A DNA stretch of 64,000 nt from Lytechinus pictus (Eukaryota): assembly GCF_037042905.1 (NCBI RefSeq), contig NC_087245.1, positions 13,890,001 to 13,954,000 of the forward strand. The letters run 5' to 3'. The stretch's first letter is position 1. Each line of letters begins with the position of its first letter. Shown here piece after piece: positions 21,201-53,900 of this stretch. Made by a program: the position numbers and the translations under genes. The notes beneath the pieces were generated by a model. That model was not told where the DNA came from. It did no database searches and worked only from the letters and a program-made list of their open reading frames with translations.

Positions 21201-21501
21201 AAAAAATAACTTTTCTCCTTATTTAATGCTTTGTCAAATTCTACAAAGACAGACAGACAGGTGCCTTAGTTTCTGAGCTTTTTTTGGGGAGGAAGACTTT
21301 AAGAAATGAACGGGAAGGGAGGGGGGGGGGGGGGTGGAGCGCGTCACGCATCAGTCTCTACATCTGTGCATTTTTTGATCTCTCTTGTATACATAATCTT
21401 TCAAAACCCTACTCAAAGGGCTCTTTTAGAAACAAGCTTCGTCTCAGCATCTCTAGAATATTTTGAGGTATATAATATTTGTCATTCATTTTTTTTTCTT
21501 A

Positions 21502-24500
21502 ATGGATTTGGATCGTTTATCTGTTAATTGCAGTTTTCTCTCTTTGAATGTGAAAGGTTTAAGAGATAAGTTAAAAAGAGAAAGAATTTTTACTTGGTTG
21601 AAGGATAAGAAAGCAGATGTAGTTTTCTTGCAAGAAACTTTTAGTACAAGGGAAGTCGAAGAAGTATGGGGTTCTGGGTGGAATGGAAACATATACTATA
21701 GTCATGGTACATGTCATAGTCGGGGGGTCAGTGTACTAATCAACTCCAAATTAGGCATCCAGATTCTGGACACAAAGACTGACGAAAATGGAAGGTTTAT
21801 AATTATGGAATGCATTTTACAAGATATAAAGTTAGTTTTAGTTAATGTGTACTTCCCTGTTCAAGGTCATAACATGGAGCGAAACACAGTTTTACACAAT
21901 TTGAATATAGTTTTAAAAGAAAAACATGATCGAGGTGTTCCTCTTATTATAGGGGGAGATTTTAATTTAGTAAGGAATAATGACTTAGACTACATGGGAA
22001 ATAATACAAGACAGTTTCAGTCTTCTTTTCAGAAGAACTTTGATAATTTTGTATGTGATTTAAATTTAGTTGATATTTGGAGGGAAATTAATGGCGTTAA
22101 GAGACAGTATACTTTTAGACAAATTAACCCCTTTATGCAAAGCAGGTTAGATTATTGGTTTATTACAGAAAGTTTTAGAAAATATGTTTTAACATGTGAT
22201 ATAATACCGTCTATAGCGCCAGATCACTCGGCGGTTGTATTTCAACTCTTTAATAAACCCTCTCAGCCATTCCAAACATTTAAAGGCACTTATTGGAAAT
22301 TTAACAATAGTTTGTGTACAGACGGTGATTTTACTCGACAAATGAAAGACGAAATTATCAATTTGAAAGGAACTTTTAAAGAAGAAATCAAAGATAAGAG
22401 AATATTTTGGGATTTCTTGAAAATGAAAATCAGCAATTTTTCTCGGAAATATTCAAAGGAAAAGGCTAAAAAACGAAGAGAGAAAATCAAAGATTTAGAA
22501 AAAGAAATTGATGGTATTCAAACGAGATTAATTACAAATATGAATAAACAATCAATCGATTTATTAGAGAATAAAAAGACAGAATTAAAGGCATGTTATG
22601 ATTATGTGAGCGAAGGTCTTAAAATTAGATCGAGAGCTTCTTTTTATGAAAGTGGGGAAAGGGATACCAGGTACTTCACTCAGTTAATGGAATCCAACAA
22701 AAGGAAAACAAATATTCGTAAATTATCAATAAGAGATAGAATAACTTTTGATCAAAAGGAAATAAAAAATGAAATAAGGAATTTTTATAGCATGTTATAT
22801 GCAAAGAGAGATGATAAAATCCTTGATGATGATTTTTTCTCCGATGTAACAAAATTATCAGACGAATCGATGAAGTCATGTGAAGGGAAAATTACGGAAG
22901 GTGAATGTTTAGCTGCCTTAAAAGGGATGAAGTTAAATAAATCACCAGGTAATGACGGGCTTAGCGTAGAATTTTATTTAGTGTTCTGGCCACTGATTGG
23001 GGATGTTTTAGTTGATGCTTTAAATAATGCTTTTATAAGAGGAGAACTTTCGCCATCACAAAGACAAGCAACTATTACTTTAATTCATAAAGAAGGAAAG
23101 GATCCATTATATATTAAAAATTATCGGCCCATCTCACTGTTAAATGTAGACTACAAGATTTTGGCAAAGGTACTATCAACAAGAATAAAGGAGGTGTTGC
23201 ATGAAATAATCAATGTCGACCAAGTAGGATATTTAAAAGGAAGGAATATTGGGGAAGCTATTAGACTTATAGATGACATGATTTTTCATTCAGTAAATAA
23301 TGATATATCGGCATATTTATTGGCCATTGATTTTGAAAAGGCATTTGATTCGGTTTCACATTGTTTTTTATTTAAAGTATTGCAAACTTTTGGTTTTGGA
23401 CTATCGTTTTGTAAATGGATAAGTACTTTGTATAAAAAAGCTGAAAGTTGTGTTTTTAATGGCAGTATTTCAACAGGTTACTTTGATATAGGGAGAGGGG
23501 TAAGACAAGGAGATCCGTTATCCCCCTATCTCTTTATTTTATGTATTGAAATTTTGGCTAACAGAATAAGACTCGATCCAGAAATTCACGGAATTAAGTT
23601 TGGAAATACAGAAGTTAAGCAAATTCTATACGCAGATGATATGACAATTTTTGTAAAAGACACTCGGTCCATTGAAAAGTTAGATATGCTGTTCGAATGT
23701 TTTGCCGAAACGTCAGGATTGAGGATGAATAAAGATAAAACCTTTATTATGTTACTGGGACACCATGAACAAACAGATCAAATTTTACCTTTTGGTAAAG
23801 TGGAGCAGATGGTTAGGATCTTAGGTATATATTTTTCATTAGATAGAGAAAGTCAAATAAGAATAAATTACAAAGAAATACTTAGTAGAATAAAGAAAAT
23901 TTTGATGTGGTGGAAGCAAAGGGATTTGACATTAATGGGCAAAATTCAGTTAATTAAAACATTTGTACTATCTAAATTGATATACATTTCTTCTCTTACC
24001 ATTATCCCGACATGGGTAATAGAGGATCTTAATACATTGATCTTTGGATTTTTATGGGGTGGTAAAGATAACATTAAAAGAGACATTGTTTATTTAGATT
24101 ATGATCATGCTGGTCTAAAAATGACAGATTTTCAGTTATTCATTAAGACACAAAGAATTATGTGGATTAAAAGACTTATAATGGGAGAGCCAAAAATGAA
24201 ATGGAAACAATATTTCAGATACTTAGCACACGGTATGGGAGGATTGCTAATTTTTTTTAGTAACCTCACAATGGATTTGATAGGATTTGAACTGCCGGAA
24301 TTTTATACAGAAATGTTAGATGTATGGTTTAATAAGAAATTGTTTTTACTTAAAGAAGAGAAGAATAAAAGAAATGAGATCATTTTTAATAATAGGTGCA
24401 TCCGTTTGAAAGGACAAACATATTATAATGAAAAGCTGTTTTTGAAGAAAATTTATAAACTCCATCATATTGTAGATAAAGATGGGAAAATGAAGTCTAT

Positions 24501-25275
24501 TTCGACCTTTCAAAAAATGGGGTTGGATCGTTTTGAAATAGAAAAGATACTCGAAATTTTTAATAATATTCCATACTTTTGGAAGGACTCGCTGAAAAAA
24601 AATGGTCAAAGTTCCATAGATAGTGAGTTAGTTTTGGATTTTCAATTAAAGGGCAGGATTTTTGATTTGCATGACATCACATCAAAAAGAATATACGATA
24701 CTCTTATAAGTATGAAATCGGATATACCCCAAGCATTTAAAAAGCTTGAGGAAAAATATAATATAACAAAAAAAGATATTTCTGAGATTTTTCTAAGACC
24801 ACGAAAATCGACTCTGAATAGTAGACTCAGAGAATTTCAATATAAAATATTACACAATATACTATACACAAAAAAATATTTATATTTATTTAAAATGACA
24901 ACAGATGATTTATGTTCATTCTGTAGTAAAGAAGAAGAAACATATGATCATATATTCTTTTCATGTGATAAGATAAAAACTATATGGAAAGAATGTGGGA
25001 ACATGCTTCAACTCCCTATCATTACAAATATAGATAAAAAAGGTGTACACGTAGGCGTGGAATGTTCAACTAAAGGAGAGGCTCAATTATTAAATCACAT
25101 AATAATCCTGATAAAGTATATGATTTTAAAGAATAGTAGAAACACAAAAGATCCACCGACCCTTAACCATATTAAGGAAAAAATACAAGAAGATAGACTA
25201 GAAGAAAGAAAACTAGCTGAACAGAGAGGTCTATTAACAAACCATTTCAGAAAATGGGACAAGTTTATTTTCTAG
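21502..25275 (+). CDS. LINE ORF2: APE endonuclease + reverse transcriptase + C-terminal zinc knuckle
   Basis: 1257 aa from the first ATG; NVKGL, LQET, GGDFN, SRLDY, PDHSAV (APE); KSPGNDG, YRPISLLN, DFEKAFDS, GVRQGDPLSP, YADD (RT); CSFC..ETYDHIFFSC. No stops or frameshifts. Confidence 0.97.
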   Translation: MDLDRLSVNCSFLSLNVKGLRDKLKRERIFTWLKDKKADVVFLQETFSTREVEEVWGSGWNGNIYYSHGTCHSRGVSVLINSKLGIQILDTKTDENGRFIIMECILQDIKLVLVNVYFPVQGHNMERNTVLHNLNIVLKEKHDRGVPLIIGGDFNLVRNNDLDYMGNNTRQFQSSFQKNFDNFVCDLNLVDIWREINGVKRQYTFRQINPFMQSRLDYWFITESFRKYVLTCDIIPSIAPDHSAVVFQLFNKPSQPFQTFKGTYWKFNNSLCTDGDFTRQMKDEIINLKGTFKEEIKDKRIFWDFLKMKISNFSRKYSKEKAKKRREKIKDLEKEIDGIQTRLITNMNKQSIDLLENKKTELKACYDYVSEGLKIRSRASFYESGERDTRYFTQLMESNKRKTNIRKLSIRDRITFDQKEIKNEIRNFYSMLYAKRDDKILDDDFFSDVTKLSDESMKSCEGKITEGECLAALKGMKLNKSPGNDGLSVEFYLVFWPLIGDVLVDALNNAFIRGELSPSQRQATITLIHKEGKDPLYIKNYRPISLLNVDYKILAKVLSTRIKEVLHEIINVDQVGYLKGRNIGEAIRLIDDMIFHSVNNDISAYLLAIDFEKAFDSVSHCFLFKVLQTFGFGLSFCKWISTLYKKAESCVFNGSISTGYFDIGRGVRQGDPLSPYLFILCIEILANRIRLDPEIHGIKFGNTEVKQILYADDMTIFVKDTRSIEKLDMLFECFAETSGLRMNKDKTFIMLLGHHEQTDQILPFGKVEQMVRILGIYFSLDRESQIRINYKEILSRIKKILMWWKQRDLTLMGKIQLIKTFVLSKLIYISSLTIIPTWVIEDLNTLIFGFLWGGKDNIKRDIVYLDYDHAGLKMTDFQLFIKTQRIMWIKRLIMGEPKMKWKQYFRYLAHGMGGLLIFFSNLTMDLIGFELPEFYTEMLDVWFNKKLFLLKEEKNKRNEIIFNNRCIRLKGQTYYNEKLFLKKIYKLHHIVDKDGKMKSISTFQKMGLDRFEIEKILEIFNNIPYFWKDSLKKNGQSSIDSELVLDFQLKGRIFDLHDITSKRIYDTLISMKSDIPQAFKKLEEKYNITKKDISEIFLRPRKSTLNSRLREFQYKILHNILYTKKYLYLFKMTTDDLCSFCSKEEETYDHIFFSCDKIKTIWKECGNMLQLPIITNIDKKGVHVGVECSTKGEAQLLNHIIILIKYMILKNSRNTKDPPTLNHIKEKIQEDRLEERKLAEQRGLLTNHFRKWDKFIF

Positions 25276-30508: not shown

Positions 30509-30628
30509 TAGAGGAATAAACATATCTTTCACCACAAAAGGGATTTGAATCAGTAGATTAATACCATTTGGATTTAATAATTTCTGTCTCCATTTACATC
30601 CAGAATCAATGATCGCCATCCGTCATCA

Positions 30629-32272
30629 ATGTTACCCTTTGCGAAAGACAGAATGGATCATCGAAGCTTTCCAAATTTCCTTCAGATATATCTTCTGATT
30701 TGGGTGTGTGTAGAAGTTCATTCGGCCCATATCCTAATGTCGGGATTTGTCGGGAAAGGAAGCCATTTTCTTTGCCTCGTCCCGATCGGGAAAAGCCTGG
30801 TACGTCAAGGTCATAATGTTTCAATGCTCATCAGTGACGAATACATGGACAGGGCCAACGACCCCGAACTCAGAAAATTCTTCAATTTCGAGATCTACAA
30901 AAACACAGATCCGCAATATTCTACTAGGGAATATTTTCAACTAATGGAGGAGTTGGGCTACAGTGAAAAAGGAGACATGGTTTCTTTTTTCAAATCATTG
31001 TCCTCATTTAAAAAGATTCTAATAAAAACCTGCGAGTTTGTCATGGAAGATAAAGAAATGATGGATCGTTTTGCGACGTTAGACGCGATTGTGTCTGATA
31101 TTGGTTGGCCATGTTCTGGTCTGATCAAGTTATACCTGAAGAAATTTTATAATAACACCGGTGTTCGTCTTGTTTTGGACACACCTACCACTCCTAATAT
31201 AGCCATGTTAGATGCCTCAGGTTCTCATTTTAACGCAGCCTATCAGCCAGCTATTATGTCTGGCTTTACTTCCAATATGACCTTCATTGAAAGAACTATC
31301 AACGCACTGTCTGGATATAGTATGAGACTGTTCATCATGTTGGCGGGAAATGCGTTTTTTCCTCTCGCCGATAAATATGGGTTGCGAGATCAAACCCCCT
31401 CATTGGAATATTCCCAAGCGGCCATAGCTGATCTGAGCCTAGGGAGTTTCGACTTTGCAATCGAGTTTCCATTTCCGATATCTCCAAGTTTGATACCTGT
31501 GGGAGGTCTTACAGCTGAACCTCCGAAAGACCTTCCGCAAGACCTAGACGATTTCATCCAAAGTTCTGGAGATGACGGTGTAATAGTGTTCACCCTCGGT
31601 ACCTACTTTGCAAGTTTTGCGACTTCCAGACCTCACCTGTTAAAGATGTTCATCGATGCCTTGGCCAAGGTACCTCAGAAGGTCGTCGTGCAACTCAAGG
31701 TCATGCCCCAGTACGACCTTCCATCAAATATTAAAGCTTTACCATGGCTACCTCAGAATGACCTCCTTGGTCATCCCAAGACTCGGCTCTTCATATACCA
31801 CGGAGGCAACAACGGGTTCTATGAAGCTGTTTATCATGGCGTACCTACCATCGTTCTGCCGTTCTTTGGGGATCAACTGGACACTGCCTCCAGAATCACT
31901 TATCACGGTATGGGACTTAAACTTGACAAGATGATACTGAGCGTCGACTACATTTATAATCACGTGATTGAAGTTTTAGGAGACTATAAATACAGTGTAG
32001 CAGCCAAACGCCTTTCCGCCATCTTGAGAGATCGGCCAATGACCCCTGCTGATCGAGCTGCTTTCTGGATCCAACACGTGATCAAACATGGCGGCGACTA
32101 CCTACGAACTCCTGCTGATGATTTATCATTCATTCAGTACAATATGATTGATGTATATGCATTTCTTGTGGGTGTAGTTGTGACCATATTATTTGTATTT
32201 TACAAGATTACACGGTGCTTCGTTGCTTGCTGTATGGGAAAGAAAGGTAGTACTAAAGAGAAACGCCAGTGA
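30629..32272 (+). CDS. UDP-glucuronosyltransferase/UDP-glycosyltransferase (GT1, membrane-bound UGT), single coding exon
   Basis: 547 aa; signal peptide, GSH catalytic His, signature WLPQNDLLGHPKTRLFIYHGGNNGFYEAVYHGVPTIVLPFFGDQ, C-terminal TM and basic tail KEKRQ. The true start may be ATG 30653 (better Kozak context). Splice acceptor at 30602-30603. Confidence 0.96.
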   Translation: MLPFAKDRMDHRSFPNFLQIYLLIWVCVEVHSAHILMSGFVGKGSHFLCLVPIGKSLVRQGHNVSMLISDEYMDRANDPELRKFFNFEIYKNTDPQYSTREYFQLMEELGYSEKGDMVSFFKSLSSFKKILIKTCEFVMEDKEMMDRFATLDAIVSDIGWPCSGLIKLYLKKFYNNTGVRLVLDTPTTPNIAMLDASGSHFNAAYQPAIMSGFTSNMTFIERTINALSGYSMRLFIMLAGNAFFPLADKYGLRDQTPSLEYSQAAIADLSLGSFDFAIEFPFPISPSLIPVGGLTAEPPKDLPQDLDDFIQSSGDDGVIVFTLGTYFASFATSRPHLLKMFIDALAKVPQKVVVQLKVMPQYDLPSNIKALPWLPQNDLLGHPKTRLFIYHGGNNGFYEAVYHGVPTIVLPFFGDQLDTASRITYHGMGLKLDKMILSVDYIYNHVIEVLGDYKYSVAAKRLSAILRDRPMTPADRAAFWIQHVIKHGGDYLRTPADDLSFIQYNMIDVYAFLVGVVVTILFVFYKITRCFVACCMGKKGSTKEKRQ

Positions 32273-42528: not shown

Positions 42529-44633
42529 CATGGGCGGAAATCTCTCCTTAAAGGTAGGGGGGACACAATTGAGTTTTCCGTTTTTATGTTCTACAGAGTT
42601 ACTAACTCAAACACACCACCACACACACATACATACATGTATATATATTTATATTTTTATTTCTTTTTGAATTGTTTATTGGACCAACTCCGAGCAGAAC
42701 ATTTCCACTTTGTATATATATATATATATATATATATTTCAAAGAGGGGAGGTATTCCTGACTAAAGATGAAAGGCCTCAATAAATAATGCGAGCGCGAA
42801 GCGCGAGCTGAAAGTTTTTGATTTTGCAACCTAAAAACTGGACATTTGTAACAATTTTTCAAATCATGAACAGGATAGGAATTACCTAAAAACTGAACAT
42901 TCGTAACACTTTTTCAAATCATGAATAGAAAAGGAGTGAAACTAAATGATAGATGCGAGCGCGAGCTTAAGTTTGTGATTTTCCAACCTAAAAACTGGAC
43001 ATTCTTAACAGTTTTATAAAAATCATGAACACGATAGGAATCTAATAAAATAATGCTAGCGCGAAGTGCGAGCTAAAAGTTTTTGATTTTCCAACCTAAA
43101 AACTGGACATTCGTAACACTTTTTCAAATCATGAACAGGATAGGAATTTAATTAAATAATAGATGCGAGCGCGAGCTGAAAATTTGTGATTTTCCAACCT
43201 AAATACTGGACATTCATAGCACTTTAAAAAGAATATAAACAGGATAGGAATCTAAACAATTAATGCGAGCATGAAGCGCGAGCTAAAATTTTTTTATTTT
43301 CCAACCTAAAAACTGGACATTCTTAGCACTTAATAACAAACGGAATAGGAATCTAAACAATAAATGCGAGCGCGAAGCGCGAGCTGAAATTTTTTTATTT
43401 TCCAACCTAAAAATTTGACATTCATAGCACCTTAAAAAGAATATGAACAGGATAGGAATCTAATCAATTAATGTGAGCACGAAGCGCGAACTGAAAGTTT
43501 TTGATTTTCCAACCTTAAAACTGGACATTCGTAACACTTTTTCAAATCATGAACAGGATAGGAATTTAACTAAATAATAGATGCGGGCGCGAGCTGAAAA
43601 ATCGTGATTTTCCAACCTTAATACTGGACATTCACAGCACTGTAAAAAGAATATAAAAAGGGTAGGAATCTAAACAATTAATGCAAGCGTGAAGCGCGAG
43701 CTGAAAGTTTTTTTATTTTCCAACCTAAAAACTGGACATTCATAGCACCTTAAAAAGAATATGCAGGATAGGAATCTAATCAATTAATATGAGCGCGAAG
43801 CGCGAGCTGAAAGTTTTTGATTTTCCAACCTAAATCCTAGACATTCTTAGTACTTAAAAAAAAATGATGAACAGGATAGGAATTCTAAACAATTAATGCG
43901 AGCGCGAAGCAAGAGGTGAAAGTGTTTGATTTTCCAACCTAAATACTGGACATTCTTAGTACTTAAAAAATTATGAACAGGATAGGAATCTAAACAATTA
44001 ATGCGAGCGCGAAGCGCGAGCTCAAAGTTTTTTATTTTCCAACCTAAAAACTGGACAATCGTAAAATTTTTTCAAATCATGAACAGGATAGGAATTTTAC
44101 TAAGTAATATTAGATTCGGGCACGAAGTGTGTGCTGAAGATATGTCATTTCCGGCCTAAAAATTGGTATTATTAGCATATTTCAAAATCAAGTACAGGGT
44201 AGCTATCTAACTAAATTTGAATTGATGTGAGCGCGAAGCGTATCCTGTTTTTTTTATTTTCCGACCAAATAAGTCATCTTCTTTTCACCTAATTATAGCA
44301 ATAAACAGGATAGTATCTGACTCAACCATGGGCGGAAATCTTCCCCAAAGGTAGGGGGGGACCAGGGACTGGAAAAGCAAAAAGCCCCCCCCCCCCAAAA
44401 AAAAAAAAAAAAAAAAAAAAAAAGGAGGAAAAAAAGGTTTTCACCCAAAATGTAAGATCATCTAGTCCAAAATACCAAAATACATGTATTATCTCGATTG
44501 TGAAGTGAGGTGTTTTTCTCCATCATAAAGTACCAAAAATAGTAGGTGGGACATTTGATATTGTGTCCCCCCCCCTACTATTTTGGGTAGGGGGGACGCG
44601 TCCCCCCTGTCCCCCCTGGGATTTCCGCCCATG
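42529..44633. mobile_element. hAT-like non-autonomous element with ~14 x ~105 bp internal tandem array
   Basis: TIR CATGGGCGGAAATC...GATTTCCGCCCATG; 8 bp TSD CTCATGCA (42521-42528, 44634-44641); units contain GCGAGCGCGAAGCGCGAGCTGAAA..CCAACCTAAAAACTGGACATT; second internal left end at ~44327. Confidence 0.92.
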
Positions 44634-44942
44634 CTCATGCATGACTCAACTGATCAATCTCATTATTCCCAAGGGGTTGCTAAATGAGTGTAGAAAACCA
44701 TCTACGAAATATCATATTTCAAAATTATTCCGTTCTAATGTTACAGCAATTTGATTTAGGGGAGACTTACTTTTTTTTTGTATATATATAAATGTGTGAA
44801 GTTATACATGTACAACAGCTTTGGCAACTCTTTTATTTAAATATTGTAAAGACATGGATGAAGAGAACAATGATAGGCGTAGCTTAAATCAAGGTTCCCC
44901 AGAGCTATCTACCCTTTGGAAAAATTGGTGATGCCGAAAAAA

Positions 44943-45014
44943 TGTCTCTGCCGGGAATCGAACCCGGGCCCCCAGCATTGAACGCCGGTGCCTTAACCAC
45001 TAGAACACAGAGAC
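44943..45014 (-). tRNA. tRNA-like cloverleaf, anticodon UCA (copy 1; D-stem mismatch, U38)
   Basis: Reverse complement GTCTCTG TG TTCT AGTGGTTA AGGC A CCGGC GTTCAAT GCTGG GGGC CCGGG TTCGATT CCCGG CAGAGAC A followed by T6. Confidence 0.6.
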
Positions 45015-45372
45015 GGGTTAGTGGCTAGGGCGACCCCGATCCGATTGACCGTCAGATAGACAGATTTTCGACACTATACCAATTATAATTTCCTTTGTCG
45101 GGTGAAGGTGGTGTTTTGAACAGTGACAAGCCGCCATGCCTCACCTGGATCAAAGGTATTGCTTTGATACAGTACACGTATGGGAGAAAGTATACAAATG
45201 TTATACATGTACAACAGCTTTGGCAACTCTTTTATTTAAATATTGTGTGAAAGAAATGGAGGAAGAGAACAATGGTAGAATGAAAAGAACAAAGGAAATT
45301 ATAATTGGTATAGTGTCGAAAATCTGTCTATCTGACGGTTAATCGGATCGGGGTCGCCCTAGCCACTAAAGC

Positions 45373-45444
45373 GTCTCTGTGGACTAGTGGCTAAGGCACC
45401 GGCGTTCAAAGCTGGGGGCCCGGGTTCGATTCCCGGCAGAGACA
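45373..45444 (+). tRNA. tRNA-like cloverleaf, anticodon UCA (copy 2; one D-stem mismatch)
   Basis: GTCTCTG TG GACT AGTGGCTA AGGC A CCGGC GTTCAAA GCTGG GGGC CCGGG TTCGATT CCCGG CAGAGAC A + TTTTTT. Confidence 0.6.
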
Positions 45445-45769
45445 TTTTTTCGGCATCACCAATTTTTCCAAAGGGTAGATAGCTCTGGGGAACCTTGATT
45501 TAAGCTACGCCTGCCATTGTTCTCTTCCTCCATTTCTTTCACACACTATATATATATATATATTGAGGGGTATTGGAAGTACGAGAATCCTGTGAAAACC
45601 CCTTGAAAGGAGGGTGGTGGTCAGAAATCGATTGGTGGGGGGGGGGGGGGAGCCTCCACGGCTAGTCTGCATGCATAAACACTGATAGAACACGAGTGGG
45701 TTTGACACAATATTAATGGAAAGTGATAATGGAAGTTGTTAATGGAAAGACTGTGAAATATGTGGAATA

Positions 45770-46254
45770 CCCGGGGGGGATGGGACTTCCATTGAGGAGT
45801 GGATACCATGTGCGACCATGGGGTCTCGAAAAGCACCCTAAACACGTATTTTCCATATTCTGAAAATGCACCCCTTAACAAGTATTGGCGTGTGAAACCC
45901 TACCCTTAACAAGTATTGGAAACGAAACGATACTCTTGCCAAGTATTCCCTGCATTGACCCCCTAAACAAGTAAAGCGATATTTTTATTATTATGTCACG
46001 GATGTCGGCTTTACCTTTACCTACATCATTGGGTTTAGTACAGCCCCACTTCCCACATCTCGCGCAAATCGTACTGTAAACACGTAGAGTTGACTCTTGG
46101 GGCAAAAAGTACATCTTTTATCAAACATTTTAGTCTTAATTTTTTACCCCCACGCAAATTTGACCCTAAACACGTAGCTTTCCCACTATTTTAGTGGGGT
46201 TTTTTGGTCGCGCATGGTATCCACTCGTCAATGTAAGTGCCCCCCCCCCCCGGG
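45770..46254. mobile_element. CCCGGG-terminated MITE upstream of the TRIM gene
   Basis: TIR CCCGGG..ACTTCCATTGA..AGTGGATACCATG / CATGGTATCCACT..TCAATGTAAGT..CCCGGG; flanking TGGAATA duplicated; relative at 60250-60564. Confidence 0.8.
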
Positions 46255-46834
46255 TGGAATATGAAGAATATTGGATGATATCCTTAATAACTAGGATATG
46301 AATGTTAACAATAGAATCTCCTATTTCTTGTGATTTTTTTTTTCAAAGATAGATGTGCGCGCCCGTGTGCGGAACTGGAGAAACCGCACAACCACACCGT
46401 GCCTTGTAAAATGTATGCATACGGAAACCCCAAAATTAAAGTGGCCCTCTACAGTTCAAAATAATGCTCAGTGGCATGGTGGGAAAACCCACTTCTATTT
46501 TCATCCCAGTATTTGCAAGTTTATTGTGACTTGTGTGTGTTTTATGAAATTTCAATTCGGTCGCTATTTTGCCATTCGTTGTATATTTACTCACACAGTT
46601 GAATAGAGAAGTAGTCATTTTTTATCGAAATATTCCCGGAAGTAGGTCGCTCATATTTTCATCCATATAGCTTTCGTCAATGCTGTTGATTCTAACACTG
46701 ACACTTAATAAAACTGCGACCACTTCGACTTGTCGAAGTAATAGATTTGTGTGCGGATTGGTTTTTTCATCAATATTTGCTTTATCTGTATTTCCTATTG
46801 AGCTCGCTTTTACTGAACAATTTTATCAACGAAA

Positions 46835-47470
46835 ATGGCTGAGAAGGCTAAAGAAGATGCATCAAACTATCCACAGAACTTGACATGCCCGCTATGCCTT
46901 GATGTATTCGATGAGGCTACCATCCTCACGACATGCGGCCATACCTTTTGCCGCAAATGCCTCATGAACTATGATCAAGTTCATCAAGAGCTCGACCACA
47001 TGATCTGTCCTCTCTGTAGAGAAATCACCAAGTTTATGTCTGCCAACCGTGTCGATGATCTCCGCCTCAATGTCTCCATCAACGGATGCGTGGATGATTA
47101 CCACATCAAGCGTGGAGGAATGAATGCTCTCCTTGAGATGAATCCGAAATGCACCAGTTGCAAGTTGCAGCAAGATGCTGTCTCTTACTGCAGAACATGT
47201 AATAACTATATGTGTGATAAGTGTTTGCATTGTCATCAACATCTCACAGTGTTCTTTGAAGGTCATGATATTGTTTCCATAGGGGATATCATCGAGGGAA
47301 ATGTAAAGATTGGTCATCTATCCGAGAAATGCCACACCCACAAACAAGATGAAAAAGATTTGTTTTGTGAAGAATGTAAGGTCCATGCCTGTCTCAAGTG
47401 CATCGTCGTTACCCATAAAAATCATGACATCAAGAATCGTACCGACTTTGAGCAGGAGCTGCAGTCCAAG
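46835..47470 (+). CDS. TRIM E3 ligase, coding exon 1 (RING + B-box1 + B-box2)
   Basis: CPLC..CGHTFCRKC..CPLC RING; CTSC..CRTC..CDKC..H B-box1; CHTH..CEEC..CLKC..H..H B-box2; donor AAG|GTAAGT at 47470/47471, phase 0. Confidence 0.93.
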
Positions 47471-47918
47471 GTAAGTGGTTTTGTAAGTCCATGGTAGTTA
47501 GACCAGGTAGCTCATAATGTCGGAACAGAAAGGGATGGGTAGTCATTGGACATACAACTTGCCACTGGTGCAACCATGAAGAGATTCCTTACTGTCGAAT
47601 AAAAAAATGAATTATCCTATCATTCTGATTACAAACTGCAAAAGAAAAAGTGACATAAGTTATGTGTGTGACTTTTTTGTTATTTTTGCAAATGATAGAT
47701 TGACCTCATAAAGTATTTTCTTACCTAATAGGCTTTATCTCTGACCAATAATTCTTTAAAAAAGTAATAAATGGTATACTTGCTCCATGTGGTTAAAAAA
47801 ATTGGTAAAATAGGACACACGATGGATTTTTTTATTGCTTATTAATGCCTATGCCCCCACCCAAAAATGATAATTAAAAAATTTTGTTTTGGTTCTGCAT
47901 TTTCTCTTGTTGCTACAG

Positions 47919-49178
47919 GTAAACGACCTTGCTCAGCGCTGTGCCGAGAAGAAAACAGAACTAGAAAAGAACATTCAGAATCTAGAAGTGCAACGTTATG
48001 AGGTACATACTGCGGTGCAGAAACTATTGGAGGATGTCAAGCAAGCCTACATCATCAAGACCAAAGAGCTGGAAGAAAATCTTAACAAACTCGAAGAGCA
48101 ATTAATCGCTTTAAAACAGAGCTTCGATGATGACCTTGATGTATTGAAATCAAAAGATCGACAGAGGATCAAGAGTATCTGTAGTTCGATCACACTGGTA
48201 GATAATGACAGACTTGGTCATCTTGAGACAGACAGTCTGTCTGCTCATGTCTTACTATGTGATGAGTTGGATGCTATGCTCAAAGAAGCTACTGATTACT
48301 TGTCTGTTGCGGCCATTACCAAGGATGCAAAGGAAACGAAGTTCAAGCCCGCAGATGATGTTCGTCTTGACCTTGGGCGTATATTAAGATTTACCGAGAT
48401 GCAGATTGTTAAATGCGTAGATTTACGGGGGCTTATTGCAGGAATGACGCGGTACACTGATGACAGTGTTGCCATTGGATTTGAAAATAATTATGATATA
48501 GATATCACTGATTCAGCTGGCAATAACAAGAAGCATACTAATATACCGAGTAACACGTTTTTCCACGATCTTGCGTTTTTGCAAGACGGATCACTCTGTA
48601 TGTCTTTGAGTAATTCAGAGGCACGAATATATTCTCTCACTGGTTCCCAGAAAGCAACCATCCAAGTGAGTGACAGAGGATATCGCCTGAAGATAAACAC
48701 CAGTCCATCAGCAGATGAAATCATCATTTCCAATGGTGGAAATGAAGTATACATCTATGATTCAACGGGATCCACTCTCAAACACACTGTTCCAGGACGC
48801 AACAAGATTCGTCAGGCCACTGCCACCAGGTCTGGTAAGATCATCACCAGTTCATGTGACCTTCAGAATCCAAGCGTGGTGACGGTTTATGACAGGGATG
48901 GGAATGCTGGCGAGTCACTACAAGCTCCAAACGGTGTCTATATGTATGCTGCCGTGGATAAGCGGGACAGGGTGTATGTAGCAAGTGTTGATCGTTCCAA
49001 GAGTAAAAACGTAGTGATCAGGCTCTATGATCTTAATGGTCTCAATTTAATAGAGAGATATGAGTTTGATGGTCTTAATACGATATTGAATTCTAACTGG
49101 TGTTATTTAGTATCTGTTTCACAAGACGTACTGGCCTTTGCATGCTACTACAAATTGTACTTCATCAAATTACTGTGA
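47919..49178 (+). CDS. TRIM E3 ligase, coding exon 2 (coiled coil + NHL-like beta-propeller); spliced product 631 aa
   Basis: Acceptor TTTCTCTTGTTGCTACAG| at 47918, phase 0 in frame; long heptad region, then beta-strand repeats (VYIYDSTG, VTVYDRDG, AVDKRDRVYVA, IRLYDLNG). Confidence 0.9.
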   Translation, partial: VNDLAQRCAEKKTELEKNIQNLEVQRYEVHTAVQKLLEDVKQAYIIKTKELEENLNKLEEQLIALKQSFDDDLDVLKSKDRQRIKSICSSITLVDNDRLGHLETDSLSAHVLLCDELDAMLKEATDYLSVAAITKDAKETKFKPADDVRLDLGRILRFTEMQIVKCVDLRGLIAGMTRYTDDSVAIGFENNYDIDITDSAGNNKKHTNIPSNTFFHDLAFLQDGSLCMSLSNSEARIYSLTGSQKATIQVSDRGYRLKINTSPSADEIIISNGGNEVYIYDSTGSTLKHTVPGRNKIRQATATRSGKIITSSCDLQNPSVVTVYDRDGNAGESLQAPNGVYMYAAVDKRDRVYVASVDRSKSKNVVIRLYDLNGLNLIERYEFDGLNTILNSNWCYLVSVSQDVLAFACYYKLYFIKLL

Positions 49179-49679
49179 TCTGAAAAAGCACTGAGCGCAC
49201 ACTCTCTTTATATAGATCTACAGTAACATACCTTTAATCACGTTAAGATATTTTCATTTACTTCACGTAGTCCGAGGAAATATGTTCAGTTGCTTCATTC
49301 ATTGATTGCTATCAGCATTTTAATAATATTAGGCATGTATCTGTTAAAATAACCCTCCCCAATGATATAAAAACAATCCTAATATTATGTTATTTTTAGT
49401 GAAATTGCTTAGCCTTTAACTTTGATTTTAGAGGAAATTACTAAAAAGGTTTGATTTTGTAGGAAATTACTAAAAAGATGATTATGTGCTCTGGTCCGTT
49501 TCATGAAAGTTGTCAGCACTAACAAGTTGTCTTTCTCCGACAGTTAACATAGCGACAGTCAGAGGCCACTTGTTTCACTGTTTATTATTTACAAAGAGGT
49601 TACTACAAGTTGTTTACATTTTTCTAATTTCTTTCAATATATATATATATAAATATGTCTTCTAATTTTTTTCAATATG

Positions 49680-50513
49680 TAACTGTCAAAAAATATTTCC
49701 GCTTGAGTGAGCACCACTTACTTTTGTAAAGTTAGTGAAAAACGATTTGCGCAGAACTTTGAAATCGTTATGTGAATAAAAGAAGAACACATGAAATTTA
49801 GCTACTAAAATTTATTTGAAGATATCTTTTACCTTTTTTAACTTGTTTCCTTGCCCAAAACACTTCGAAGAGTGCATTGCGCTCCATCCCACTCCCCCAT
49901 ACACCGAGGCCATCGTGACGACATTTGCTTTACACTGAGCTGTGATTTACATGAAATGGCTTAGGATTGATTTTTCATTTTGTTAATCATCGTCAAGCTT
50001 GGAAATAGTGTGGAGAAAAAGTATTAAATGGAAAATGAGATGTAAACCCACTTTAAATGAAATAAACTTAGTGATAGAATGCTGGAGATGTCTGATATAA
50101 GTTTTTGTTCAGATTCAGTTATGTCCTCAGATCCAGCTGGCACAAAAAGGGTAGTTTACTAAGTGTTGAAATTTCAATTTGGGTGGCAAAATTGTTACAA
50201 AATGCTTGAATGTATCCGTTTTATTTCAATTGACTAAAGTGCAAGGGAAATGTATGAGAAATGTTTAAGTTTGATTTCGCCCTTTCCCCTTGACACAGCG
50301 TGAAAACAAGCATTTCTGCGCAAACAGATTTCTGCGAGCTTTACAAAAATGGACAGTGCTCACTCAAGTGTAACATTCTGTAATAACTTTTACTTTCATT
50401 GGATAGATGAGACCCAAACCCAAGGTTATATGTAAAAAAAAAATTACCCACATGTTGTATATGTTTTAATTCCCAGTGTTTTTTCAAAGTGTAAACTTTT
50501 TTGATACGCACTG
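49680..50513. mobile_element. Truncated Tc1/mariner-type MITE
   Basis: Right end TTTTTGATACGCACTG|TA (CAGTG terminus); internal inverted block TTGAGTGAGCAC / GTGCTCACTCAA; left terminus missing. Confidence 0.6.
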
Positions 50514-50526
50514 TATATATATATTG

Positions 50527-50857
50527 TTCAAAACCCACCTACACCCGACAAAGGAAATAATAATTGGTATAGTGTCGAAAATCTGTCTATCTGACGGTCA
50601 ATCGGATCGGGGTTGCCCTAGCCACTAACCCGTCTCTGTGGTCTAGTGGTTAAGGCACCGGCGTTCAAAGCTGGGGGCCCGGGTTCGATTCCCGGCAGAG
50701 ACATTTTTCGGCATTACCAATTTTTCCAAAGGGCAGATAGCTCTGAGGAAACTTGATTTAAGCTACGCCTACCATTGTTCTCTTCATCCATTTCTTTCAC
50801 AAAATATTTATATAAAAGAGTTGCCAAAGCTGTTGTACATGTATAATTTCACACATT

Positions 50858-50858
<1 letters not shown>
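50527..50858 (+). mobile_element. 5'-truncated copy of the tRNA-carrying (TA)n-embedded repeat
   Basis: Aligns to the reverse complement of 44790-45122; (TA)n on both sides. Confidence 0.85.
50632..50703 (+). tRNA. tRNA-like cloverleaf, anticodon UCA (copy 3; all stems paired), possible opal suppressor or mobile-element tRNA mimic
   Basis: GTCTCTG TG GTCT AGTGGTTA AGGC A CCGGC GTTCAAA GCTGG GGGC CCGGG TTCGATT CCCGG CAGAGAC A, 72 nt, stems 7/4/5/5 bp, anticodon TCA at 50665-50667, TTTTT directly downstream. G32 is atypical. Confidence 0.7.
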
Positions 50859-50906
<48 letters not shown>

Positions 50907-50911
50907 GTGTG

Positions 50912-50981
<70 letters not shown>
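50858..50981. repeat. (TA)n microsatellite containing a 17 bp inverted copy of the adjacent element end
   Basis: TATAATTTCACACATTT-(AT)n-AAATGTGTGAAATTATA-(TA)n. Confidence 0.9.
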
Positions 50982-50984
<3 letters not shown>

Positions 50985-53900
50985 TTATGTACGTTGTACA
51001 TATAACTATCATGGTGTAAATATTTTTTTTTTTTTTTTTTTCATGTACGTGTAATAAGTCTCATAAAGGCCATTACAATTCGAAAGGTTTAAAACGGTGT
51101 TTAATACAAAGTTTACTGTAGAATTAATGAAGATCAACCATTGGTTTTGTTTCGCCACTTTACCCTAATTATGTTTTACGAAATTGAAGTTGGCCGGTAT
51201 ATTAATTCTTCCTTTTTTTTTTAAAGGGAACTGACAGGGACGCTCATTAGCCCGACCGTAATGTTTTTTAATTTAACACTTGTTTTGGAAAGAAGATTAT
51301 TTTATTAATACCGAATGAACGTAAATTTTTCTGGTAATTGACAAAGAAAAAAAGTGGTGAGATAGGGCATTGTACCTATCGGTGCAAATATTAATTCCTT
51401 ACATGTTTTATTGCAAATGTCATTGTGCATGTTTTCTATCATACTGAAAAGTTCATTGTTCGAGTTTGAAATGTTCTACAATACGTTCTGGACAAATCTT
51501 CAAATAATTTAGCGAGAGGTTCAACTTTGTAACGTAGCGCTGTAAATAAAATATTTAGAGAGTTTGGCAAATTTAAAATTAGTGACAATATATTGCGTAT
51601 ACAGGTAGACCTATACAGCCAATCATGTCGCTATATATATGCTGCAAAAAGGAGGCGGTGTGTTGGGCAGACTCTGTCATACACGGCACTTGGAAGAACT
51701 TTTAGCTGTTTATTCAATTACCAATTGAACAACGTGCACCACTTCACCTTTGAACCCTTGTTGTATATACAGAATATGGGGTTAATACATCTAGATGTAT
51801 ATTCACTCAATTCATTTTCCATTGCTTCCGAGCCATTTATAAAGTGAGATGTATACTCAAATGATTTAAAATGAAACTTCATTAATTTGAAAGTCAGCCT
51901 TAGTTTAATGATTATTATTGTTATGATAATTGCTTATATTATCATTGTAATTATTGTTATTCTACTTCTTCTCCTCTTCTTATCCCTCTTCTTCTTCTTC
52001 CTCTTCTCCTTCTTCTTCTTCTTATTATTGTTGTTGTTGTGTTTATTATTATTATCATAATTAATATTGATATTATTCAATGTATTACTATCCATTTTGC
52101 AAAAGACATTAATCAAAAAGCTATTCACAGAGTGCAAAACATGGTAGGGAAAGGAGAGGGCAACTTTATTACCTTTGTAATATAATTGATCGGGATGGGT
52201 ATCTAGTTCTGCATTGCTTGTAAATTAATCTTTAGCTTTCATTTTCATAATTATGATTGCAGGGGCTTTTTTCAATTTTCATATATTTGATACGACACTT
52301 GTTTCTATCTATTTCGCCTTTTGTGTTCTTGAAATGTGCATTGAAATGTGGGGCAAGGTCAAAATTCAAAAGTTGCAAAATGACACAATATTGAAAGTCA
52401 CTGTTCTTTTTTCCGTGGTGATGAGTGAGTTTCTCAGCGGTTTCTTTTGTTTTCTTGCACCTTAAAGGTCCCATGACACAGAAATCATTCATTTTAGAAG
52501 TAAGCAATTTCCTAATGTAGTGTTTCGTGTAAAACACAACATTAACATGGAATCAAACACACCTCTGCACAAGCAAACACATAAAAACAAGCATGCATGG
52601 GTATTTCAAACCACGACTCAAACCATGTTATCTCACAGAACCATCACTACATAAACCACATTTAAAAAAACATAAAAAATGAAGAAGCAGGGGTTTGATT
52701 TGAATGGATTTTCATCTCTATTGACACATTCAAGAATCATGTTCTGTATTGACCCTTCATCATGTTCATGACCATTTCTGCTCGTTTTGCAGATTTTCAA
52801 GTCAGACTTCATCCAACACTTTTGAATCCTGCTCTTTTCGTGATGGCATGATCATAACAAGCATGGTGTCATTTTAAAGAGAATTAAATTATCTTTTGAA
52901 TGATATCAAATATGCATTGTGTAGAATTGGAAGTTGGGAGAAAATAATGGCTAAACTCAGATTTCCAAACTTTTTAAGAGGGGTTTATATACATCATAAA
53001 TATGTCTTCTATTTTTTTGATATATATGTACATATATATACATTTATGTACGTTGTACATAGAACTATCATGGTGTAAATAATTTTTTTTTTTTTTTTTC
53101 ATCTACGTGTAATAAGTCTCATAACGGCCATTATAATTCAAAGGGTTTAGAATTGTGTTTAATACAAAGTGTACTGTAGAATTAATGAAGGTCAACCATT
53201 TTTTTTCTCACTTTACCCTTATGTTTTACGAAATTGAAGTTGATCGGTATATTCATCATTTTTTAAGAAAGGGAACTGAAAGGGAAGCTCATTAGCCCAA
53301 CCGTAATGTTATTAATTTGACACTTGTTTTGGAGAGAAGTTTCTTTTATTATTACCGAATGAACTTAAATTTTCCTGGTAATTGACAAAGAAAAAAAAGT
53401 TTTGAGATAGGGCATTGTATATATCGGTGTAAATATTCATTCCCTACATGTTTTATTGCAAATGTCTTTGTGCATGTTTTCTATCATACTGAAAAGTTCA
53501 TTATTCGAGTTTGAAATGTTCTACAATACGTTCTGGACAAATCTTCAAATAATTTAGCGAGAGGTTCAACTTTGTAACGTAGCGCTGTAAATAAAATGTT
53601 TAGAAAGTTTGGCAAACTTAAAATTAGTGACAATATATTGCGTATACAGGTAGACCTATATAGCCAATCACGTCGCCATATATATTATGTTGTACCCTTA
53701 AAAAGAAGGCGGTGTGTTGGGCAGACTCTGTCATACACGGCACTTGGTAGAACTTTTAGCTGTTTATTCAGTTTCCAATTGAACAATGTGCACCATGATT
53801 ATTATTGTTATGATAATTGCTTATATTATCATTGTAATTATTGTTATTCTACTTCTTCTCCTCTTCTCCTCCCTCTTCTTTTTCTTCTTCCTCTTCTCCT

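Follow-up and report, generated by a model that had tools for sequence, protein, structure and literature searches.

Three tRNA-like cloverleaves and their carrier

We analysed a window of 64,000 nucleotides of Lytechinus pictus DNA (NC_087245.1, positions 13,890,001 to 13,954,000), in which ARAGORN found exactly three tRNA-like genes, all with the anticodon TCA. They lie at 44943-45014 (minus strand), 45373-45444 (plus) and 50632-50703 (plus), where they had been predicted from the sequence, and the general tRNA model RF00005 covers each of them end to end (model 1-71 of 71) with 48.9, 54.9 and 60.9 bits, respectively, above its gathering score of 29. The cmscan alignments give stems of 7/4/5/5 bp, and in all three copies a T5 or T6 run follows the discriminator base immediately (T6 at 44937-44942 and at 45445-45450, T5 at 50704-50708). 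One non-standard D-stem pair is found in each of the first two copies, while all stems of the third are standard. The anticodon loop reads G-U-UCA-A-A, so that position 32 is a purine, the non-canonical G that the original prediction had pointed out along with the D-stem mismatches. The UCA anticodon is shared with tRNA-Sec and classical opal-suppressor tRNAs, and it alone accounts for the ‘SeC’ label given by ARAGORN. The module differs from those tRNAs in its length of 72 nt, 4-nt variable loop, 7/5 acceptor/T stems, UCC-derived anticodon (see below) and G32, and the general tRNA model was the best Rfam family in its clan, in line with the earlier rejection of a tRNA-Sec. A weak match to mascRNA-menRNA stays, at 28.9 bits, below the gathering score of 42.5 and reflects nothing more than general tRNA likeness. 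The window also contains a LINE with an RT + APE ORF at 21457-25272.

The three cloverleaves are carried by one and the same 410-bp non-coding unit, in which the tRNA module occupies positions 180-251, as the predicted offset of ca. 180 nt required. The unit has no ORF, no terminal inverted repeats (TIRs) of its own and no A-rich or LINE-like tail, ending instead in (TA)n; a second T5 lies 20 nt beyond the T5-6 run adjoining the tRNA, and no Rfam ribozyme family matched the unit at E up to 1. A 37-mer that covers the TCA anticodon and the T arm had 1,691 exact matches in the genome and none when read backwards, so the cloverleaf repeat is far above chance, and the proposal that a mobile element carries it stands. 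Well over a thousand copies of the unit are present in the genome; the initial search returned 1,623 candidates, dispersed across all large contigs, of which 40 were scored.

Within the window the unit forms two insertions, both bounded by (TA)n as anticipated. In insertion A, a full unit (unit 1-409) at 44790..45194 on the minus strand is 95.9% identical by blastn to the reference unit (L012:2388-2797), and its outer, 3' side meets a (TA)5 at 44781..44790, the junction reading ...TTCACACATTT and then (TA)n. Head-to-tail with it lies a 5'-truncated upstream unit (unit 319-398; 45200..45278, minus strand), recognised by blastn and by the tandem junction sequence, a partial tandem that resembles a pseudo-LTR. 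After a gap of 10 bp this minus-strand array is faced head-to-head by an inverted, 5'-truncated partner running from unit 96 to an internal 3' end near 350-364 (blastn match 45289..45556, plus strand); the unit sequence stops near 45546 and the remainder of the match is (TA)n, read at 45547..45564 as the outer side of this copy (junction class ‘360-366’). The head-to-head pair makes up an inverted repeat (I1) with 251-nt arms that are 96% complementary, and it mimics TIRs, so that the claimed lack of such repeats holds for the unit but not for the insertion as a whole. Insertion B is a single 5'-truncated unit (unit 70-409) at 50522..50858 on the plus strand, 95.6% identical by blastn to the reference unit, with a (TA)n at its 5' junction (50514..50524) and a long (TA)n microsatellite at its 3' end (50859..50982). 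The word TGTATATATA immediately precedes the insert and is found again 11 nt inside the right flank. Inside the microsatellite, at 50892..50909 on the minus strand, we read an 18-nt inverted copy of the last bases of the unit (TAAATGTGTGAAATTATA), tail to tail with insertion B, which is a minimal second insertion or a ‘tail’ of the type known from Penelope-like elements (PLEs), and which gives rise to weak miRNA-like Rfam matches at 50839-50922.

Insertion architecture

The family-wide architecture was derived from 143 non-redundant matches (60 loci plus the window), which form 64 clusters and 92 arrays. Arrays open with a 5'-truncated unit, after which come 0 to >40 full units, and the single 5'-truncated unit makes up more than half of them (57 of 92). 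Starts are scattered from unit 1 to unit 363. Of the 3' ends, 48 lie at unit 405-410, 20 at 360-366 and 24 elsewhere. The two alternative 3' ends, ca. 158 and ca. 100 nt downstream of the tRNA, have TTCACAC(A) as a common motif and both pass into (TA)n; 68 of 90 arrays have at least four TA repeats no more than 30 nt from their 3' end. Both orientations occur together in 26 of the 64 clusters (23 head-to-head, 2 tail-to-tail, 1 other), and the remaining 38 have one orientation only. With (TA)n on both flanks target duplications are mostly unreadable, but one locus (L018) has a clear duplication of 12 bp.

This combination of 5' truncation, tandems, inverted partners and fixed 3' ends fits a PLE, and neither a SINE nor a transposon with TIRs. 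An ordinary SINE, moved by LINEs and transcribed by Pol III from a tRNA head, would also be non-coding and present in high copy number with a tRNA-related part bearing A and B boxes, and LINEs are at hand, even in the window. Here, however, the tRNA begins after 179 nt of the unit, has a complete acceptor stem and is followed at once by a terminator, with the further T5 shortly after; the copies do not start at the tRNA, their tail is (TA)n, and tandem and inverted insertions are foreign to SINEs. We regard such an origin as very improbable; the original prediction had likewise set the internal tRNA and its terminator against a SINE head. Still harder to defend is a cut-and-paste element of the MITE kind with TIRs and a TA target site. 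The inverted arms of insertion A, the TA-rich flanks and the several loci where an inverted 3' end adjoins the 5' side might suggest it, but the ‘arms’ are whole copies, variably truncated from 17 nt to >1 kb between loci, with inner ends that are never constant, and most clusters have a single orientation. A satellite spreading without reverse transcription, through recombination, unequal exchange or extrachromosomal circles that re-integrate into (TA)n, and with the tRNA as just a part of the monomer, is a somewhat better candidate, though an unlikely one. It would account for the long homogeneous arrays (one at C2:8.866-8.884 Mb, whose >40 units repeat every 406 bp and are counted among the 37-mer matches, and one of at least 8 units on C28) and for the circularly permuted unit starts. 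Yet the single truncated units dispersed over all large contigs, the fixed 3' against variable 5' ends, the head-to-head partners in nearly all mixed clusters and the one target duplication argue for target-primed reverse transcription and not for exchange. The long arrays themselves could have grown by unequal exchange.

A likely derivative of Penelope-like elements

We consider it likely that the 410-bp unit is a non-autonomous retroelement copied into (TA)n by PLEs, with their reverse transcriptase and endonuclease, and that its UCA anticodon was inherited through a C36-to-A change and is probably not that of a working suppressor. PLEs are known for strong 5' truncation and partial tandems, for an inverted copy, itself 5'-truncated, that adjoins the insertion, and for a bias towards microsatellites, and the Naiad group is described as preferring (TA)n among its targets and as lacking hammerheads (Craig et al., 2021, PMC8557442). 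The unit resembles these endonuclease-positive PLEs (Naiad/Chlamys and canonical) in its pseudo-LTR-like 5'-truncated tandems, its multicopy head-to-tail insertions, its adjacent inverted 5'-truncated copies and its microsatellite bias, towards (TA)n as in Naiads, and, again as in Naiads, it has no hammerhead (PMC8557442). The complete tRNA gene with its terminator is a feature of the unit; none is reported for PLE derivatives in the available part of that study. Short non-coding units of 170-400 nt, tandem and dispersed, are also known as animal non-LTR retrozymes, which have no LTR, PBS or PPT and have been proposed as non-autonomous relatives of PLEs; their defining feature is a type I hammerhead, which cleaves the RNA into unit lengths that are then circularised (Cervera & de la Pena, 2020, PMC7229834; Li, Clavereau & Pollet, 2026, 10.64898/2026.07.22.740005). 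Our unit is similar in size class and organisation, likewise without LTR, PBS or PPT, but has a tRNA cloverleaf and no ribozyme match where retrozymes, as these sources describe them, have a hammerhead.

PLEs are abundant and intact in the genome of L. pictus. All six full-length copies examined end in (TA)n 150-660 bp past the ORF, and so does a further PLE family found at L076; the same ending was seen in every PLE family sampled in the genome. Non-autonomous Chlamys elements have the same 3' ends as autonomous families (PMC8557442, in the part available), whereas no matching coding partner was found for our unit: its 3' end is absent from every PLE family sampled in the genome, and when the whole unit was compared by blastn with 54 loci bearing PLEs (30 + 2 + 6 + 16 from separate collections), only inserted unit copies matched. 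A pattern search for the terminal 18-mer in a different upstream context had one match, unrelated, and there was no Naiad-type element with an N-terminal endonuclease among the PLEs sampled.

History of the anticodon

The module is close to the host tRNA-Gly(UCC), of which there is a cluster at C13:22.08-22.16 Mb; the D loop and the entire T arm (17 nt) are identical in the two, as are six of the seven bases of the anticodon loop, but acceptor pairs 2:71 and 3:70 are unlike those of the host gene. The flanks of copies with TCC have a median identity to the family majority of 90.9% (n=17), against 97.1% for those with TCA (n=20; Mann-Whitney P=9e-6), and among ten copies below 90.1% identity, unselected on the anticodon, the third base is C in 6, T in 2, G in 1 and A in 1. 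From these comparisons TCA is derived, a C36>A founder change of a young burst, with TCC as the older form. The majority sequences of old and young copies differ at 8 of 408 positions, one of them anticodon base 36, a comparison that by itself is no proof of TCC ancestry since the old set was partly chosen by TCC. Anticodon conservation holds for the young majority, which is TCA, and not for the older subfamily.

UCA goes back to the founder of the young subfamily and so is probably not the anticodon of a working opal suppressor. A transposon-borne opal suppressor was one of the original suggestions; that the ca. 1,700 copies should include active Pol III genes, giving a charged tRNA that reads UGA for a partner or for the host, we find scarcely credible. 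In its favour are the intact cloverleaf, the promoter boxes and terminator, the success of precisely the young UCA subfamily and the use of in-frame UGA, as selenocysteine, by some Naiad PLEs of other phyla (PMC8557442). Against it, besides the derived anticodon, G32 and the acceptor pairs, stand the stems, which show no covariation: of 1,785 pair cells none had a compensatory change, 45 had lost the pair and 20 had changed on one side with the pair kept. Rare variants occur at a rate of 1.94% in the tRNA and of 2.65 and 1.84% in the two flanks; individual copies decay neutrally. A search for a free-standing gene with the 5' half of the module had two matches, both unit copies. A need for UGA readthrough in the partner finds no backing either, as 110 of 124 sampled PLE ORF matches have no stop and TGA alone interrupts 3, with open frames of up to 982 aa; the one in-frame TGA encountered, at L061, does not occur in a sister copy that is 100% identical and has an open frame of 766 aa. 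Well over a thousand such suppressor genes would, moreover, be expected to be harmful.

Passenger or working part

A different role, close to the second of the original suggestions, would be that of a cloverleaf kept for the element itself in a unit mobilised by PLEs. Host RNase P and RNase Z would cut, at the tRNA, transcripts that are multimeric or arise by read-through, as the hammerhead does in retrozymes and canonical PLEs, or the A and B boxes would attract TFIIIC/Pol III and leave the copies accessible or transcribed. The mascRNA of MALAT1 is a tRNA-like processing signal inside a long transcript, and the module might be similar, a cloverleaf within a longer transcript open to cleavage by RNase P/Z. 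We consider such a role rather unlikely. The family majority sequence has all four stems perfectly paired, even where their sequences are unlike host tRNA-Gly(UCC), and the 7/4/5/5 stems, B box and T5-6 were kept from old to young copies with one change in 72 nt. That one subfamily could spread with 4-10 nt inserted in its anticodon stem (8 of 85 unique aligned copies) tells against decoding and against selection on individual copies; it does keep the acceptor and T arms, and these are the parts that RNase P/Z mainly need. The tRNA has no high-frequency variant column (minor allele in at least 10 copies), against ca. 14 in 338 flank positions, and like the perfect majority stems this counts against a mere passenger, at a probability that we estimate at P ~0.07 only. 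Canonical PLEs and retrozymes, as described, have a ribozyme and the unit has none (PMC8557442, PMC7229834). Set against this, the old-to-young changes show no difference in conservation (1/72 in the tRNA, 7/336 in the flanks). Nor do 5' ends pile up at the borders of the tRNA: 2 of 92 arrays start at unit 252 and none at 180, only one copy found genome-wide begins exactly at tRNA position 1, and the genomic 3' ends lie well past the tRNA. PolyA RNA-seq from a species of the same label yielded only ca. 90-130 unit reads per run (11 million records), and these lie in both orientations; they pass through the tRNA without a dip or clustered ends, and 34-39% of them continue into unlike sequence, as read-through would.

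Under copying by PLEs, the RNA of one or several units would be transcribed from arrays or by read-through and primed on a nicked (TA)n target at the UA-rich stretch just past TTCACAC(A). Reverse transcription would then proceed until the enzyme falls off, leaving variable 5' ends, and a second template primed on the opposite strand would produce the inverted partner. As for the tRNA module, its most likely source is a pre-tRNA-like unit (tRNA plus oligo-T) of the tRNA-Gly(UCC) type, taken up by reverse transcription or copying. In our judgement the module, which may still be a Pol III/TFIIIC site, is a tolerated passenger more probably than a component on which mobility depends.

tRNA-Like Genes in the Window

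ARAGORN detected exactly three tRNA-like genes in the window, with anticodon TCA in all three, and they are the same cloverleaves that the original prediction had picked out from the sequence. The general tRNA model of Rfam spans each of them end to end and scores 48.9-60.9 bits, where the gathering threshold is 29. In the alignments the stems are 7/4/5/5, the variable loop has 4 nt and position 32 is a G, with one non-standard D-stem pair in two of the three copies, so that both the canonical geometry and the two reservations made at the time (G32 and the D-stem mismatches) were seen again. A run of T5 or T6 lies directly 3' of the discriminator in the three copies, also as predicted, and in the unit a second T5 is found 20 nt beyond this run. 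The minimum-free-energy fold recovers the acceptor, anticodon and T arms, not the D arm (z about -2). The call "SeC" is simply the name that ARAGORN gives to this anticodon. A true tRNA-Sec, already dismissed in the original prediction, does not fit, as there is no long variable arm or extended acceptor/T stack and the general tRNA model is the best within its Rfam clan.

The three copies belong to a 410-bp non-coding repeat (the unit) with the tRNA at positions 180-251, as read from the flanks. Insertion A (ca. 44790-45556) carries two of them. It lies within a (TA)n tract. Its minus-strand part is a partial tandem (unit 319-398, then unit 1-409), and its plus-strand copy extends from unit 96 to an internal 3' end; the two arrays meet head to head, 10 bp apart (45200-45278 on the minus strand, 45289-45556 on the plus strand). 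Insertion B (50522-50858) is a single 5'-truncated unit inside a long (TA)n tract. Between the insertions lies a two-exon TRIM-like gene on the plus strand (46817-47494 and 47874-49175), with RING and B-box followed by a weakly beta-propeller-like C-terminal part. A similar RING/B-box ORF adjoins another unit copy (locus L040), probably a coincidence within a large gene family. At 45770-46253, between insertion A and this gene, 49-nt inverted repeats (86% complementary, with G/C-run ends) surround ca. 386 bp, an arrangement resembling a small TIR element (MITE) that has no relation to the tRNA unit. Also on the plus strand are an apparently intact LINE (21457-25272) with an open 1,272-aa ORF containing APE-type endonuclease, reverse transcriptase and zf-RVT, and a 563-aa single-exon ORF (30581-32269) matching UDP-glucuronosyl/glucosyl transferases (PF00201, E 8.6e-94).

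Copy Number and Architecture of the Unit

The copy of insertion B, used as query against its own genome (811.7 Mb), gave 1,623 first-look candidates, and all 40 that were scored are 89-100% identical to it. An exact 37-mer spanning the TCA anticodon and the T arm occurs 1,691 times in the genome, the reversed control 0 times; among the matches is an array on contig C2 in which more than 40 units repeat every 406 bp. One divergent copy (75% identity, L022:3023-3249) lacks close relatives, a search with it leading back to the main family.

The architecture was studied on the window plus 60 loci, whose 143 non-redundant hits form 64 clusters and 92 same-strand arrays. Single units make up 57 of the 92 arrays and pairs another 29, the remainder having 3-9 units (2-9 units in 35/92). 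The first unit of multi-unit arrays is truncated, and over the 92 arrays the 5' start of the first unit can fall anywhere in unit 1-363. What had looked like a leader has, wherever present, the 3' end of a further same-strand unit upstream of it, and a fixed 5' end of the unit therefore does not exist. The 5' ends crowd at unit 57-74 (17/92 arrays within 18 of the 410 positions), which could mark the place where the template RNA begins or where the reverse transcriptase stops. A hairpin, ATCAAAGC AATA GCTTTGAT, is located just upstream, at unit 27-46.

The 3' ends fall at unit 405-410 in 48 arrays, at 360-366 in 20 (these are blast positions, the true junction being near 350-356) and elsewhere in 24. 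The irregular ones belong to old copies, to short internal fragments or to hits at the edge of a locus. At both regular 3' ends the sequence is T(T/C)TCACAC(A), followed by (TA)n, and at least four TA repeats follow 68 of 90 3' ends. The description of a mobile, (TA)n-embedded repeat with a tRNA ca. 180 nt inside it was accurate. Both orientations occur together in 26 clusters, 23 of them arranged head to head with the truncated 5' ends facing. Target duplications are mostly unreadable, with (TA)n on both sides of most insertions; a clean one of 12 bp, TATATATATTCA, was found at locus L018.

Between a third and a half of the sampled 31-letter words of the stretch recur in runs of three different organism labels, and near-identical copies of the family are for this reason probably present in more than one species.

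Class of the Element

In the unit, 5' truncation is variable and the 3' end constant; there are also partial tandems, an inverted 5'-truncated partner and a bias towards microsatellites. These are marks of Penelope-like elements (PLEs), to which Craig et al. (2021, PMC8557442) ascribe a high degree of 5' truncation, pseudo-LTRs that arise from partial tandems, an inverted and 5'-truncated copy beside the 5' end and microsatellite bias. The same work names (TA)n as a preferred target of Naiads, the PLEs with N-terminal endonuclease, gives hammerheads as absent from them, and reports multicopy head-to-tail insertions for non-autonomous Chlamys elements (Craig et al., 2021, PMC8557442).

Other classes of non-coding repeat can be set against this. 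A tRNA-derived SINE fails as a reading because the tRNA is internal, the T5-6 terminator follows it directly and copies do not start at the tRNA; the tail, moreover, is (TA)n. The opinion that this is not an ordinary SINE was thus upheld. Only one copy starting exactly at the tRNA was found (L099, from 1504 onward, G000:C2:52425541), and there the T-run after the tRNA is broken (TTTATT); this single case would be the form expected of a Pol III read-through template. The inverted arms might recall a TIR DNA transposon (MITE), but they are variably truncated whole copies, on which account this reading fails too, and 38 of the 64 clusters have one orientation only. A non-LTR retrozyme would resemble the unit in its tandem arrangement, yet retrozymes have a hammerhead in each unit, whereas here the complete tRNA gene stands instead: no type I hammerhead or other self-cleaving family matched in Rfam at E up to 1 (both strands of window 44000-52000, which includes a full unit and the tandem junction). 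With the insertion marks of PLEs present and the SINE and TIR-transposon readings failing, the unit is likely a non-autonomous retroelement mobilised by a PLE, and on its sequence features we regard it as a mobile element of Penelope type.

Penelope-Like Elements and the Search for a Partner

Intact PLEs abound in this genome. With a 323-aa RT-endonuclease query, 1,088 first-look PLE candidates were obtained; of the 124 matches that were scored, 110 contain no stop, and the longest open frame has 982 aa. The ends of these elements run into (TA)n in all six full-length copies that were read, and so do those of a further family at locus L076. The latter (1035-2345) is represented by a 5'-truncated coding PLE copy that has ca. 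150 nt from its own 3' terminus repeated in inverted orientation on the 5' side and (TA)n at both outer ends, the textbook PLE form.

We searched for a partner in 30 loci from the protein search, six full-length copies (three further families), two RT-bearing neighbours of unit copies and 16 GIY-YIG (PF01541) loci. Of the 1,088 first-look candidates a part was read, and the queries were of types other than the N-terminal-endonuclease (Naiad) one. All 16 GIY-YIG loci are C-terminal-endonuclease PLEs and no Naiad-type element is among them. Besides inserted copies of the unit itself, blastn found no sequence shared between the unit and the PLEs in 54 PLE-bearing loci. A genome pattern search for the terminal motif of the unit in a foreign upstream context gave one match, unrelated, and no other repeated context. 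That the search yielded no partner is the weak point of the PLE assignment. At two loci a PLE copy lies close to a unit copy, head to head with ca. 70 bp of (TA)n between them (L061) or separated by ca. 480 bp of other DNA (L062); neither proves co-insertion.

Tests for Selection on the Cloverleaf

At the level of individual copies there is no selection on the cloverleaf. Rare variants amount to 1.94% in the tRNA and to 2.65% and 1.84% in the flanks. A table of 85 unique copies by 21 stem pairs (1,785 pair cells) contains 0 compensatory (double) changes; 45 pairs are broken, and in 20 a change on one side left the pair intact, so there is no stem covariation. For the propagating lineage there is little evidence. 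Between the old and the young majority sequence, 1/72 tRNA positions and 7/336 flank positions have changed, which is no difference, and none of the high-frequency variant columns (ca. 14) lies inside the tRNA (P about 0.07, own estimate). A subfamily with a GC-rich insertion of 4-10 nt on the 5' side of the anticodon stem nevertheless spread to several loci, so that spread does not require a canonical anticodon arm.

Origin of the Opal Anticodon

Conservation of the anticodon, which the original prediction put forward for testing, holds only in part: nearly all copies at 55 loci have TCA (ARAGORN), but older copies have TCC. Scattered exceptions at the same loci are TCG, TCT, TCC, TAA and ACA, and some copies are disrupted by insertions. 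Among 10 copies with less than 90.1% identity, unselected on anticodon, six have C as the third anticodon base and two have T, while G and A occur once each. The exact pattern TTCCAAG plus T arm has 50 matches genome-wide, comprising 24 unit copies and 26 tRNA-Gly(UCC) genes, nearly all of the latter in a Gly/Asn tRNA cluster on contig C13. This cluster (22.08-22.16 Mb, L119-L130) holds ca. 25 tRNA-Gly(UCC) genes amid many tRNA-Asn(GUU), densely packed in both orientations. With the selected segment omitted, the flanks of TCC copies have a median identity to the family majority of 90.9% (n = 17) vs. 97.1% for TCA copies (n = 20, drawn from contig C1 in the order of listing; Mann-Whitney P = 9e-6). 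This lower flank identity indicates that TCC is the older state and that TCA derives from a C36>A change in the founder of a young, very successful subfamily.

The tRNA module of the unit and the host tRNA-Gly(UCC) have in common the D loop, six of the seven anticodon-loop bases and the whole T arm; the acceptor, D and anticodon stems differ in sequence, yet are paired. On this basis the module can be called Gly(UCC)-like. Searching for a free-standing gene with the 5' half of the tRNA and non-unit upstream bases gave two matches, both unit copies (sensitivity ca. 32% per gene copy, own estimate).

The idea that the module works as an opal-suppressor tRNA has in its favour the TCA anticodon of the abundant young copies. 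Against it, UCA was not maintained in the lineage and the stems show no signs of purifying selection, with no compensatory change and a rare-variant rate like that of the flanks. Nor did the idea of UGA readthrough serving an autonomous partner find backing, given how many of the scored PLE matches have no stop. One in-frame TGA was seen in the RT domain of the 5'-truncated, C-terminal-GIY-YIG PLE copy at L061 (8205-8207, minus strand), and it is copy-specific, as a 100%-identical sister at L063 is open over 766 aa. The opal anticodon is an accident of inheritance, and it is unlikely to serve in decoding.

Unit Sequences in RNA

PolyA RNA-seq from the same-label species shows that unit sequences occur in long RNAs: the unit is covered by ca. 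90-130 reads per run (11 million records), with both orientations represented. There is no dip and there are no clustered ends at the tRNA borders, and polyA reads are uninformative on mature tRNA. Of the unit reads, 34-39% pass on into dissimilar sequence, as would be expected of read-through from adjacent DNA. Read pairs mapped on a unit dimer gave no direct-orientation back-joint and, in one run, a few opposite-strand joints, polyA libraries being ill-suited to circles. A-rich loose read ends after unit 352 appear in all three RNA runs (10, 4, and 5 reads); we take them to be the A/TA-rich genomic flanks of copies ending at the internal 3' site, not proof of polyadenylation.

Possible Role and Significance

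Since both alternative 3' ends carry TTCACAC(A) followed by (TA)n, this suggests a short 3' signal for recognition or priming. As to the tRNA, one can imagine a ribozyme-free counterpart of the retrozymes in which the tRNA gene replaces the hammerhead, with host RNase P and RNase Z (or the binding of Pol III/TFIIIC) acting at the tRNA and so defining or protecting the element RNA. Its by-product would be ca. 1,700 Pol III-competent UCA genes, with possible tRNA fragments or low-level UGA read-through. We consider this scenario rather improbable. A literature search, with Repbase outside it, found no published description of a tRNA-bearing PLE-type repeat.

For annotation, well over a thousand "SeC" or suppressor tRNAs are to be expected in the output of tRNA finders on this genome, and probably on related sea-urchin genomes. 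These calls belong to the repeat and should be masked. The unit would also be a compact substrate for in vitro work on target-primed reverse transcription by PLEs, a kind of study for which Craig et al. (2021, PMC8557442) have called. With a non-coding, hammerhead-less tandem element that has the full insertion marks of PLEs, the parasites of these retroelements would extend past the ribozyme-bearing retrozymes. Should the cloverleaf prove necessary, with the complete tRNA gene serving this element as the hammerhead serves retrozymes, a retroelement would have recruited a host tRNA-processing signal in place of a ribozyme.
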